A DNA stretch of 64,000 nt, from the NCBI RefSeq assembly GCF_013167455.1, contig NZ_CP038328.1. One strand, written 5' to 3'. This document shows positions 25,201 through 28,200 of the stretch, one piece after another. The stretch comes from Escherichia coli O157:H7 (GTDB lineage Bacteria > Pseudomonadota > Gammaproteobacteria > Enterobacterales > Enterobacteriaceae). The position numbers are program-made. The first letter of the stretch is position 1, and the number at the start of each line of letters is the position of its first letter.

Positions 25201-28200
25201 GCAAAACTGACATAAATCTCCAGAGATGTGTTCAGGAGTTAGAAAGATTATTTCTTCTATTCTAGACAAATCCCCCTCTGATTGACAGCATCACTGACCA
25301 ATCGCAAAGATTGCTAAGGCTGCTTATGGCAGGGAGATAAGGATGGTCGATACAGAAATTTGGCTGCGTTTAATGAGTATCAGCAGCTTGTACGGCGATG
25401 ATATGGTCCGTATAGCTCACTGGCTGGCAAGACAGTCGCATATTGATGCGGTTGTATTGCAGCAAACAGGGCTTACATTGCGGCAGGCACAACGCTTTCT
25501 TTCATTTCCGCGGAAGAGTATCGAAAGCTCACTTTGTTGGTTGGAGCAACCCAACCATCATTTAATCCCTGCGGACAGCGAATTTTATCCTCCTCAACTT
25601 CTGGCGACGACAGATTACCCCGGTGCACTGTTTGTTGAAGGAGAACTGCACGCGCTGCATTCATTTCAGCTTGCCGTAGTGGGGAGTCGGGCGCATTCAT
25701 GGTATGGCGAGCGATGGGGACGATTATTTTGCGAAACTCTGGCGAAGCATGGAGTGACAATTACGAGTGGACTGGCGCGTGGAATCGATGGTGTAGCGCA
25801 TAAAGCAGCCTTACAGGTAAATGGCGTCAGCATTGCTGTATTGGGGAATGGACTTAATACCATTCATCCCCGCCGTCATGCCCGACTGGCTGCCAGTCTG
25901 CTTGAACAGGGGGGCGCTCTCGTCTCGGAATTTCCCCTCGATGTTCCACCCCTTGCTTACAATTTCCCACGAAGAAATCGCATTATCAGTGGTCTAAGTA
26001 AAGGTGTACTGGTGGTGGAAGCGGCTTTGCGTAGTGGTTCGCTGGTGACAGCACGTTGTGCGCTTGAGCAGGGGCGAGAAGTTTTTGCCTTGCCAGGTCC
26101 AATAGGGAATCCGGGAAGCGAAGGGCCTCACTGGTTAATAAAACAAGGTGCGATTCTTGTGACGGAACCGGAAGAAATTCTGGAAAACTTGCAATTTGGA
26201 TTGCACTGGTTGCCAGACGCCCCTGAAAATTCATTTTATTCACCAGTGAACCGCCCCGGGAATCCTGGAGACTAAACTCCCTGAGAAAGAGGTAAACAGG
26301 ATGACTAAAAATACACGTTTTTCCCCCGAGGTCCGTCAACGAGCAGTTCGTATGGTTCTGGAAAGTCAGGGCGAATATGACTCACAATGGGCGGCAATTT
26401 GTTCCATTGCCCCAAAGATTGGCTGTACACCAGAGACTCTGCGTGTGTGGGTTCGTCAGCATGAGCGGGATACCGGGAGTGGTGATGGTGGACTCACCAC
26501 CGCTGAACGTCAGCGTCTGAAAGAGCTGGAACGTGAAAATCGTGAACTGCGCCGCAGTAACGATATCCTTCGCCAGGCTTCCGCTTATTTTGCGAAGGCG
26601 GAGTTCGACCGCCTCTGGAAAAAATAATGCCGCTGCTGGATAAGCTGCGTGAGCAGTACGGGGTCGGACCGGTATGCAGTGAACTGCATATTGCCCCGTC
26701 AACGTATTACCACTGTCAGCAACAGCGACATCATCCTGATAAACGCAGTGCCCGTGCTCAGCGCGATGACTGGCTGAAGAGAGAGATACAGCGCGTATAC
26801 GATGAAAATCATCAGGTGTACGGTGTGCGTAAAGTCTGGCGCCAGTTGTTACGCGAAGGTATCAGGGTGGCCAGATGTACAGTGGCGCGCCTCATGGCGG
26901 TTATGGGACTTGCCGGTGTTCTCCGGGGTAAAAAGGTCCGTACTACCGTCAGCCGGAAAGCCGTTTCCGCAGGCGACCGCGTAAACCGTCAGTTCGTGGC
27001 AGAACGTCCTGACCAGCTGTGGGTGGCTGATTTTACTTACGTCAGCACATGGCAGGGCTTCGTCTATGTGGCGTTCATCATTGATGTGTTTGCCGGATGT
27101 ATCGTGGGGTGGCGAGTCTCATCGTCTATGGAAACGACATTCGTGCTGGATGCACTGGAGCAGGCGTTGTGGGCCCGTCGGCCGTCCGGCACAGTCCATC
27201 ACAGTGATAAAGGTTCTCAGTATATATCACTGGCCTATACGGAGCGACTAAAAGAAGCAAAACTGCTGGCATCAACAGGGAGTACAGGTGACTCGTATGA
27301 CAACGCGATGGCGGAGAGCATCAATGGTCTTTACAAAGCGGAGGTAATACACCGTAAGAGCTGGAAAAACCGTGCAGAAGTGGAACTGGCCACACTCACG
27401 TGGGTGGACTGGTATAACAATCGACGATTGCTGGGAAGGCTGGGTCATATCCCTCCGGCAGAAGCAGAAAAAGCTTATTATGCTTCCATCAGAAACGATG
27501 ATCTGGCAGCCTGAGTTCACAGATAAAACACTCTCCAGGAAAACCGGGGCGGTTCACCAGATCAGGAAGACGTGGCATTGCCATTTCCTGAGCTCCTGGC
27601 TAACGTAGGAGATGAGGTAACACCTGTTGACGTCGTCGCTGAACGTGCCGGCCAACCTGTGCCAGAGGTAGTTACTCAACTACTCGAACTGGAGTTAGCA
27701 GGATGGATCGCAGCTGTACCCGGCGGCTATGTCCGATTGAGGAGGGCATGCCATGTTCGACGTACTAATGTATTTGTTTGAAACCTATATTCACACAGAA
27801 GCTGAGTTGCGTGTGGATCAAGACAAACTTGAACAGGATCTTACCGACGCAGGATTTGATCGAGAAGATATCTACAATGCCCTGCTTTGGCTGGAAAAGC
27901 TTGCGGATTATCAGGAAGGACTGGCAGAACCGATGCAACTGGCCTCTGATCCACTCTCCATGCGTATTTATACCCCTGAGGAGTGTGAAAGACTGGATGC
28001 CAGCTGTCGTGGTTTTCTGCTTTTCCTTGAGCAAATTCAGGTGCTTAACCTTGAAACCCGTGAAATGGTGATAGAGCGAGTGCTCGCGCTGGATACCGCA
28101 GAGTTCGACCTGGAAGACCTGAAATGGGTAATCCTGATGGTGTTGTTCAATATTCCGGGCTGCGAAAATGCGTACCAGCAAATGGAAGAATTACTCTTTG

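Follow-up and report, generated by a model that had tools for sequence, protein, structure and literature searches.

How the IS629 transposase is made at the junction of its two genes, orfA and orfB, and on which slippery sequence the ribosome would change frame, is the question raised by the 64 000-nucleotide stretch of Escherichia coli O157:H7 DNA analysed here (the window). The sequence at 26611–26630, GCCTCTGGAAAAAATAATGC, contains the 3' end of orfA, TGG AAA AAA TAA, and the earlier note had placed the frameshift on the A6 run in front of this stop codon. We consider it likely that the element is an intact IS629 and its junction the known recoding cassette of the IS51 group, with U_UUU_G, a U-run 33 bases upstream of the A-run, as the principal slip site and the A-run as a second, weaker and clade-specific one. 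The frameshift biology met here is already known; nothing in it is new.

The window holds a single IS629 copy, a complete element of 1310 bp (26247–27556; this and all other features described here lie on the + strand), identified by profile match and by copies in many O157:H7 genomes that are 100% identical to it along all 1310 bp. All traits of the IS3 family and the IS51 group that were examined are present, i.e. a length of about 1.3 kb, inverted repeats, a duplication of 3–4 bp, and overlapping orfA (HTH) and orfB (DDE/rve) genes, the latter in the -1 frame. Members of the same cluster are named 'IS629 transposase OrfB' or 'IS3-like element IS629 family transposase'. Direct comparison of the left (IRL, 26247–26271, beginning TGAACCGCCCCGG) and right (IRR, 27532–27556, ending in CCGGGGCGGTTCA) terminal repeats, which are 88% complementary, shows imperfect inverted repeats of the 5'-TG...CA-3' type, with matches at 23 of 27 compared positions (TGAACCGCCCCGG...CCGGGGCGGTTCA). 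The element is flanked by a clean 4-bp target-site duplication, CCAG (26243–26246, inside dprA, and 27557–27560), and splits dprA (smf) into a 5' part (25343–26246) and a 3' remnant (27557–27781) that overlaps the start of smg (27753). The empty site, rebuilt with one CCAG, agrees with intact dprA at 100% identity and has contiguous coverage of at least 80% in 5422 of 5426 genomes; the insertion of IS629 in dprA is found in only three complete genomes. Judged from its sequence, the copy is intact, has recently transposed into dprA and looks competent for transposition. The earlier note had named the element correctly and had called it potentially competent, which agrees with its identity to other copies, its intact inverted repeats and catalytic triad, the clean duplication and the rarity of the insertion.

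OrfA (26301–26627, 0 frame) is a DNA-binding protein of 108 aa with an HTH_Tnp_1 domain (Pfam PF01527, 48.1 bits), and orfB (26627–27514, -1 frame) encodes 295 aa with HTH_21 and the rve integrase core (Pfam rve, 89.5 bits), including the DD(35)E triad D135, D194 and E230. Both reading frames are open, with orfB shifted by -1 against orfA, as claimed previously, and the positions then given for the A6 run (26619–26624), the TAA (26625–26627) and the ATG of orfB (26627–26629) are all correct. The -1 frame opens past a TAA at 26558–26560, so that the two genes overlap from 26561 to 26627, and this overlap contains exactly two in-phase slippery tetramers of the type Z_ZZN, namely U_UUU and A_AAA. 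At its end stands UAAUG (26625–26629), a stop/start arrangement that would permit independent translation of orfB by termination-reinitiation; of the 15 aligned sequences about 12 have ATGA or TAATG, and across this alignment the feature that is widely conserved at 26611–26630 is the stop/start overlap. IS3-family elements use the fusion protein as their transposase. The predicted OrfAB fusion scores 369.2 bits against the IS3 equivalog model of NCBIfam (NF033516, cut-off 160). Both fusions that can be predicted, by a shift on the U-run or on the A-run, pass this model (369.2 versus 364.7 bits); they are equally long, and only 10 residues (98–107) distinguish them.

The U_UUU_G motif ('T4G', 26588–26592) is in phase and lies 5 nt before hairpin 1 of the structure described below. 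Here the UUU codon of the 0 frame (26589–26591) would re-pair at 26588–26590, and the next codon in the -1 frame would be UGC. Phase and spacing of the U-run are preserved in 12 of 15 diverged relatives, which have U_UUU, U_UUC or U_UUU_UUY there: a UUU or UUC codon preceded by U ends 5 nt before hairpin 1, where the -1 frame of orfB is already open, and four of these 12 relatives have the full U_UUU_UUY heptamer. The other three fall outside this phase pattern; damage to the copy is plain in at least one of them, and the heuristic used to assign frames may have gone wrong for the rest. The Rfam model for this structure has at its 5' end a conserved UAUUUUGC, given in upper case, to which the U-run corresponds. 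Relative to the U-run, hairpin 1 agrees on all four counts with the stimulators of the IS3 family as defined by Sharma et al. (2014), i.e. a length of at least 17 nt, a start 4–10 nt past the motif, an unfolding energy that amounts to 7.6 kcal/mol or more, and a stem base with an opening G-C pair and then three or more stacked pairs. An in-phase motif, an open -1 frame, a stimulator at 4–10 nt and conservation are thus all found at the U-run, which we regard as the principal conserved -1 shift site. In combination with a pseudoknot, U_UU.C ranks second and U_UU.U third among the tetramers in their tendency to shift (PMC4066793). By the published rule, no SD-like stimulator is present at a valid distance from either the U-run or the A-run. 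An AGG/AAGG about 10 nt 5' of the U-run is conserved, but it falls outside the SD rule and is also coding sequence.

The structure downstream of the U-run is an apical loop-internal loop (ALIL) pseudoknot (Rfam RF01497; 26582–26698), matched over the full model (positions 1–117 of 117) with 120.9 bits (gathering score 50, E 1.9e-32) and annotated as an ALIL feature by PGAP in identical IS629 copies. Hairpin 1 (26596–26614, -10.4 kcal/mol) consists of the stem A-GGCGG/CCGCC-U and the loop AGUUCGA, and its G-C pairs are invariant or nearly so across 15 sequences. Hairpin 2 (26659–26698, -21.2 kcal/mol, z = -3.1), with the internal loop UCGGAC on its 5' side (26664–26669), shows covariation, and none of 200 shuffles is equally stable. 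The pseudoknot helix is formed by GUUCGA of the apical loop (26603–26608) and this internal loop (6 bp, -5.4 kcal/mol) and is equalled by 146 of 20 000 random loop pairs. Across the 15 sequences 91% of its cells are paired, with double changes at two of the six pairs, among them a change from C-G to U-A (9 versus 4) that is carried by the IS629 clade itself. Indeed, compensatory changes are found in all four helices of the ALIL, the loop-loop helix included. Taking all helices together, 88% of cells are paired, nine pairs show double changes and 0–1 of 500 shuffles are as good, compared to 33–45% of cells paired in slid-partner controls; as the structure was taken from the Rfam model, this last comparison somewhat favours it. 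The ALIL is present in 15 of 16 relatives with 38–96% protein identity, and these 15 were aligned. The score above threshold, the loop-loop complementarity kept in evolution and the slippery motif just 5' of it in the orfA/orfB overlap all place the structure among the ALIL elements. The same arrangement of apical and internal loop serves 27 or more IS elements besides IS3411 (PMC5009743), and for IS3411 the ALIL is reported to raise -1 frameshifting in vivo (cited in PMC5009743).

From the anatomy, reading phase, structure, covariation, conservation and copy integrity observed here, we infer how ribosomes may stall and slip at this junction and how the two sites may be used relative to each other. 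Most ribosomes would read orfA to the UAA and release OrfA; some would restart at the overlapping AUG of UAAUG and make OrfB, while a small fraction would slip by -1 and produce a 404-aa OrfA-OrfB fusion, the DDE transposase. On the U-run, the tRNA-Phe on UUU would re-pair one base back in a ribosome stalled by hairpin 1, 5 nt downstream, and pairing of the apical loop (26603–26608) with the internal loop of hairpin 2 (26664–26669) would lock hairpin 1 and form the ALIL. On the A-run, with the slowly decoded UAA in the A site, the tRNA-Lys on AAA (26622–26624) would slip to 26621–26623 and translation would go on with AUA-AUG; such a 'shifty stop' should need no RNA structure. Chen and Hu are said to have reported in 2006 that T4G and A4T are both -1 signals, active in lacZ reporters and giving two products, of which the T4G product reportedly is the transposase and the A4T product assists. 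The claim of the earlier note that the transposase arises by programmed -1 frameshifting is one that we share.

The A-run itself is an in-phase A_AAA tetramer (26621–26624) at the end of the A6 run, followed by the stop codon in the A site (26619–26627), which we take to be the published 'A4T' signal of Chen and Hu (2006) and treat as a candidate secondary -1 site of low efficiency. The earlier note had counted it as an A-rich heptamer; in the phase of orfA it reads G_AAA_AAA, which is no X_XXY_YYZ heptamer, and only the tetramer followed by UAA is left. The same note was right to consider it a frameshift site in so far as it is one of the two in-phase tetramers, but it missed the conserved U_UUU_G and the ALIL, and the A-run is restricted to one clade. 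It is found in IS629/IS1203 only, its relatives having AAACGA, AAGCGA, GCGGCC, AAGAGC etc. at this position. The alignment suggests that it was gained within that clade, and we tentatively entertain the possibility that the A_AAA-UAA 'shifty stop' is a recent IS629/IS1203-only addition to an ancestral U-run/ALIL cassette that provides a second fusion isoform. That two products exist is already published; only the polarity comes from our alignment. Both motifs are kept in all six distinct intact IS629/IS1203 copies examined, so that data from within the clade cannot rank the two sites.

Conversely, the A-run might have no role in recoding and merely encode two lysines, with only the U-run/ALIL site being programmed. 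Its confinement to one clade and its lack of a stimulator fit this explanation, as do its frequencies: the window contains 83 A6 runs, with 71.8 ± 11 expected, and the probability of a chance A6 in the 66-nt overlap is about 4%. As A6 runs are not enriched, a chance hit has this probability and the run encodes Lys-Lys, the sequence alone fails to mark the A-run as a signal. However, the title of Chen and Hu (2006) speaks of two frameshift products, and the overlap holds exactly two in-phase tetramers. In addition, a slippery Lys codon followed by a stop is a classic shift-prone context. Slippery codons directly before a stop are reportedly the 'shifty stops' of Weiss et al. We therefore judge it unlikely that the A-run has no role in recoding.

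Still less probable is that the active OrfAB transposase arises by a frameshift on the A6 run in front of the orfA stop. It is true that A_AAA is in phase, that the -1 frame is open and the stop codon follows directly, that tRNA-Lys(UUU) is noted as highly shift-prone and that the A-run is reportedly one of the two published signals. Some database entries also place the junction there, one for IS629 and one for an IS1203-type element (99 contigs). For IS629, an exact-sequence look-up gave 229 contigs with the U-run product and two with that of the A-run, and for related elements the databases use three different junction conventions; we did not accept such counts as evidence for either site, since they reflect annotation practice. 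Against the A-run stands its absence from all relatives beyond the IS629/IS1203 clade, whereas conservation does extend to the U-run and the ALIL cassette. Moreover, A_AA.A is the weakest of six effective tetramers, and none of these shifts without a stimulator (PMC4066793). Folding of 26625–26700, as proposed earlier, does give a strong hairpin (26658–26699), but this is hairpin 2 of the ALIL and stands 34 nt from the A-run. When we looked for a stimulatory hairpin 4–10 nt past the A-run, the sole candidate nearby (26628–26655, -9.3 kcal/mol, z = -0.4) had a bulge after two pairs and was not conserved, 54% of its cells being paired versus 45–49% in slid controls; as shuffled sequence is equally good and comparative support is lacking, we rejected it. 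Nor is there an SD-like stimulator 6–17 nt before the A-run, as GGAG (26600–26603) and GGCGG (26597–26601) end at least 18 nt before 26622, the motif's second base, GGAG being the nearest at about 18 nt. Finally, the A-run lies in the 45-nt linker of the ALIL, 3' of hairpin 1; the structure would be partly behind a ribosome sitting there, and hence the pseudoknot cannot act on it.

RNA polymerase slippage on the A6 run, adding one A and fusing orfA to orfB in the transcript, appears very improbable. An A7 mRNA would yield a protein (…WKKIMPLL…) no different from that of a ribosomal -1 shift on the A-run, homopolymeric A and U heptamers have been linked to transcriptional slippage, and one decayed relative has A5 in place of A6, which shows the A-run to be indel-prone; yet six A are fewer than in the runs known for efficient transcriptional slippage. 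A single tblastn piece that seemed to be a natural orfA-orfB fusion was discarded, since in this copy orfB is truncated and the gaps against IS629 add up to 14 nt. That no frameshifting takes place and OrfA and OrfB are only made as two separate proteins, by coupled translation at UAAUG, has next to no probability: the stop/start overlap is widely conserved among relatives, and OrfB of IS629 is reported as a separate product that lowers transposition frequency (PMC5771124), but a conserved in-phase slippery motif and a covarying pseudoknot would then lack a purpose, and IS629/IS1203v excision rises to about 1e-3 when fused OrfAB is supplied, versus 2.6e-6 with the native arrangement (bioRxiv 10.1101/2023.06.07.543989).

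We therefore return to the U-run/ALIL cassette with its second, weaker A-run site, which closely matches known systems. The dual frameshift system of IS629 (Chen and Hu, 2006, J Biol Chem 281:21617) concerns the same element, which has a length of 1310 bp, imperfect inverted repeats of 25 bp and the genes orfA and orfB; its two motifs towards the 3' end of orfA, TTTTG and AAAAT, recur here at 26588–26592 and 26621–26625, and we see no structural difference. The ALIL of IS3411 (Mazauric et al., 2008, J Biol Chem 283:20421; RF01497) is matched by the full-length model hit, by hairpin 1 at 5 nt past the shift site and by a second hairpin 45 nt further 3' (reported range 44–104 nt); it differs in that the IS629 clade has GUUCGA/UCGGAC instead of GCUCGA/UCGAGC, a compensated change with one U-G pair. 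The supplements of Sharma et al. (2014) mention none of IS3411, IS629, IS1203 and IS51. With IS911, IS150 (A_AAA_AAG) and IS3 (A_AAG, H-type pseudoknot) IS629 shares a -1 shift in the overlap, from which an OrfAB DDE transposase results, and stimulation of the shift by an RNA structure on the 3' side; however, its conserved motif is no A-rich heptamer but a U_UUU tetramer, its stimulator is an ALIL rather than an H-type pseudoknot or stem-loop, and it has no SD-like element at a stimulatory distance. The A-run resembles A_AAA_AAC of IS1 as an A-rich -1 site of low efficiency with no established RNA stimulator, but in IS1 the motif is the sole site and a genuine heptamer in phase, whereas the A-run is a tetramer plus stop, secondary to a structured site.

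For annotation this means that the shift site of IS51-group elements should be sought just 5' of the ALIL and not at the homopolymer nearest to the orfA stop; public annotations place the junction inconsistently. No other IS in E. coli O157:H7 is as abundant or as active as IS629, which drives strain diversification and the inactivation of genes, stx2 included. A copy that is intact and has a functioning recoding cassette is thus a live source of instability, in line with the earlier note, and, if the A-run was indeed added to the ancestral cassette in this clade, a second isoform differing in the last 10 OrfA-derived residues could contribute to the unusually high activity of IS629 in EHEC.

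The nucleotides 26611-26630 of the window read GCCTCTGGAAAAAATAATGC, and the earlier note had described this junction exactly: orfA (26301-26627; 108 aa) ends with TGG AAA AAA TAA, in which the A6 run at 26619-26624 (A-run) codes for Lys-Lys and precedes the stop codon at 26625-26627, and orfB (26627-27514; 295 aa) lies in the -1 frame with its ATG overlapping that stop. The last -1-frame stop is a TAA at 26558-26560; the -1 frame opens directly after it, at 26561, and the overlap of orfA and orfB is therefore 26561-26627. One point needs amending: in the orfA phase the A-run reads G_AAA_AAA, which differs from the canonical X_XXY_YYZ heptamer, and what it provides in phase is the tetramer A_AAA, immediately before UAA. 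Runs of six A are no rarity in the window (83 observed vs. 71.8 ± 11 expected), and the probability of some A6 run within the 66-nt overlap is ~4%. Only two in-phase slippery tetramers of the type Z_ZZN occur in the overlap: A_AAA at 26621-26624 (then UAA) and, 33 nt upstream of the A-run, U_UUU at 26588-26591 (then G).

According to the best-supported account, this U_UUU_G (26588-26592; U-run) would be the ancestral and principal -1 site, stimulated by an apical loop-internal loop (ALIL) pseudoknot. The Rfam ALIL model (RF01497) matches 26582-26698 over its full length (120.9 bits vs. a gathering score of 50; E = 1.9e-32), and RefSeq annotates identical copies with an ALIL feature and a 'programmed frameshift'. 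Hairpin 1 (26596-26614; GGCGG, loop AGUUCGA, CCGCC) begins 5 nt after the U-run and conforms to all four stimulator criteria of Sharma et al. 2014. A 45-nt linker separates it from hairpin 2 (26659-26698; -21.2 kcal/mol, z = -3.1, 0 of 200 shuffles as stable), and the loop-loop helix pairs GUUCGA (26603-26608) with UCGGAC of the internal loop (26664-26669; 6 bp, -5.4 kcal/mol). The U-run corresponds to the conserved upper-case UAUUUUGC of the Rfam consensus, the A-run position to its lower-case, poorly conserved linker.

We compared the element with 16 relatives (38-96% protein identity, all from plasmids) from Escherichia, Shigella, Pseudomonas (IS51), Rhizobium, Methylobacterium, Cupriavidus, Acetobacter, Sphingobium, Moraxella, Acinetobacter, Embleya and Nocardia. 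The ALIL was detected in 15 of them. Twelve of the 15 aligned relatives have a 0-frame UUU or UUC codon that ends 5 nt ahead of hairpin 1 and follows a U, have orfB in the -1 frame, and have that frame already open at the U-run position; the other three fall outside this phase pattern, at least one being a visibly damaged copy. Pair counting over 15 sequences supports all four ALIL helices (88% of cells paired vs. 33-45% with the partners slid), with nine pairs changed on both sides (equalled in 0-1 of 500 shuffles); in the pseudoknot helix the IS629 clade itself carries a double change from C-G to U-A (9 vs. 4). A full U_UUU_UUY heptamer is found in four of the 12 relatives with an in-phase U-run, from Sphingobium (L008), Moraxella (L014), A. 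johnsonii (L012) and Embleya (L013), always as an extension of U_UUY at the identical position; different lineages seem to adjust the efficiency of shifting at a single, fixed position. The A6 run, among the aligned relatives, is confined to the IS629/IS1203 clade, the others having AAACGA, AAGCGA, GCGGCC, AAGAGC, AAGTAA etc. at its place. Three loci deserve separate mention. In L016 (Acetobacter senegalensis plasmid, locus 683-805) the U-run is lost (CACATTGATGCC), 6 nt are inserted after hairpin 1 and the ALIL score (54.9 bits) barely exceeds the threshold, so this is either a decayed copy or a user of another shift site. L015 (Shigella boydii plasmid NZ_CP049283.1, ~locus 115-125) is a 5'-truncated IS629-like copy that has lost 1 nt of the run at the end of orfA (A5 for A6) and with it the orfA/orfB frame relationship; the A homopolymer seems to be indel-prone in decaying copies. 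The IS1203-like L004 (E. coli plasmid NZ_AP027792.1), a single tblastn piece, might pass for a natural orfA-orfB fusion; its alignment to IS629, with 14 nt of gaps, and an orfB cut to ~78 codons past the junction rule this out.

For the A-run, a search for a stimulator in 26625-26700 had been suggested. Folding of this segment gives two hairpins, the stronger of which is ALIL hairpin 2, 34 nt 3' of the A-run. The nearer one (26628-26655; -9.3 kcal/mol) does not stand out from shuffled sequences (z = -0.4; equalled by 62-66 of 200) and is not conserved across relatives (54% of cells paired vs. 45-49% in slid controls), and with a bulge after two pairs it falls short of the stacked pairs required by Sharma et al. 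2014. As to a Shine-Dalgarno (SD)-like stimulator for the A-run, the nearest GGCGG and GGAG, in hairpin 1, stop at least 18 nt short of the motif's second base, outside the stimulatory range of 6-17 nt. An AGG/AAGG (26574-26577; alignment columns 5-9) ~10 nt 5' of the U-run is kept in most relatives at a spacing right for an SD-like -1 stimulator; it is absent from the published list of such motifs and lies within conserved coding sequence (Arg-Gln/Lys-Ala). Judging from ribosome geometry, the ALIL would act on the U-run and not on a ribosome at the A-run, because hairpin 1 is by then already unwound and behind the decoding ribosome. In one study (PMC4066793), tetramers combined with a pseudoknot rank as A_AA.G >> U_UU.C > U_UU.U > C_CC.U = C_CC.C > A_AA.A. 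In IS1 and IS3 elements U_UU.[U,C] is among the predominant tetramers, and A_AA.A is also well represented.

The A-run stands as a plausible, reportedly real secondary -1 site; the conserved primary U-run and its pseudoknot had been missed. A_AAA-UAA would be a clade-specific, low-efficiency 'shifty stop', at which the P-site tRNA-Lys might slip during slow decoding of the A-site stop. Slippage at either site would produce a 404-aa fusion, ...LWKK-IMPLL... in case of the A-run, and the two proteins differ only within residues 98-107. Chen & Hu reportedly identified both TTTTG and AAAAT as -1 signals by lacZ fusions, with OrfAB' (from T4G) as the transposase and OrfAB (from A4T) as a partner that binds and stabilises it; a mechanism with two sites in the window element fits this account. 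Both fusion sequences occur verbatim in public collections (U-run product, 229 contigs; A-run product, 2), and the IS3 profile fits the U-run fusion marginally better (369.2 vs. 364.7 bits). Related elements are annotated under three junction conventions (AYF|CEGG, AYF|GEGG, WKK|LM), and the IS629/IS1203 'programmed frameshift' proteins (P0001, P0003, P0004, P0005, P0009, P0012) show at least three (...AYF|CEGG..., ...AYF|GEGG..., ...WKK|I/LM...). Such inconsistent placement yields different reference proteins from identical DNA; the recorded junctions are annotation practice and no evidence of biology.

The identification as IS629 with -1 frameshifting was borne out. The window holds a single IS629 copy, a 1310-bp element (26247-27556) that ends in imperfect inverted repeats, is bordered by CCAG on either side and has full-length copies of 100% identity in many E. 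coli O157:H7 genomes. Members of its protein cluster are named 'IS629 transposase OrfB' and 'IS3-like element IS629 family transposase', and the fused protein scores 369 bits against the NCBI IS3 equivalog model (cut-off 160). Domain searches identify OrfA as an HTH_Tnp_1 protein and find HTH_21 and the rve integrase core in OrfB, with a catalytic triad D135, D194, E230 spaced as DD(35)E. The element interrupts dprA (smf), with smg and yrdD downstream. Rejoined with one CCAG, the flanks are 100% identical to intact dprA; of 5426 complete E. coli genomes, 5422 cover this empty site contiguously to at least 80%, and the identical insertion occurs in only three complete O157:H7 genomes. Together with the CCAG flanks, this identifies an intact copy and a clean, recent transposition, in support of the proposed transposition competence. 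IS629-type elements sit in dprA at three different positions, as independent insertions in unrelated lineages and all in dprA orientation: E. coli F2_81 (L018, NZ_CP043542.1, locus 294-1603; 94.3% identity to 26247-27556), O145:H28 RM12581 (L019, NZ_CP007136.1, locus 203-1512; 99.8%) and the window (100%). Insertion into dprA may be recurrent or well tolerated.

IS629, ALIL RF01497 and dual frameshift signals are all already known, and the interpretation in the earlier note is, as a whole, partly supported. Functional data point to the fusion as the driver of IS629/IS1203v activity, excision being ~1e-3 with OrfAB supplied vs. 2.6e-6 with the native gene arrangement (bioRxiv 10.1101/2023.06.07.543989), and OrfB is reported to reduce the transposition frequency of IS629 (PMC5771124). 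About 12 of the 15 aligned elements with an ALIL (L002-L016; alignment columns 59-65, window 26622-26629) show an overlap of the orfA stop with an in-frame orfB start, which takes the form ATGA in most relatives; IS629, Moraxella and Acinetobacter have TAATG. Such an overlap would allow OrfB synthesis by termination-reinitiation, and its distribution suggests that this mode of synthesis is ancestral in this group of IS elements.
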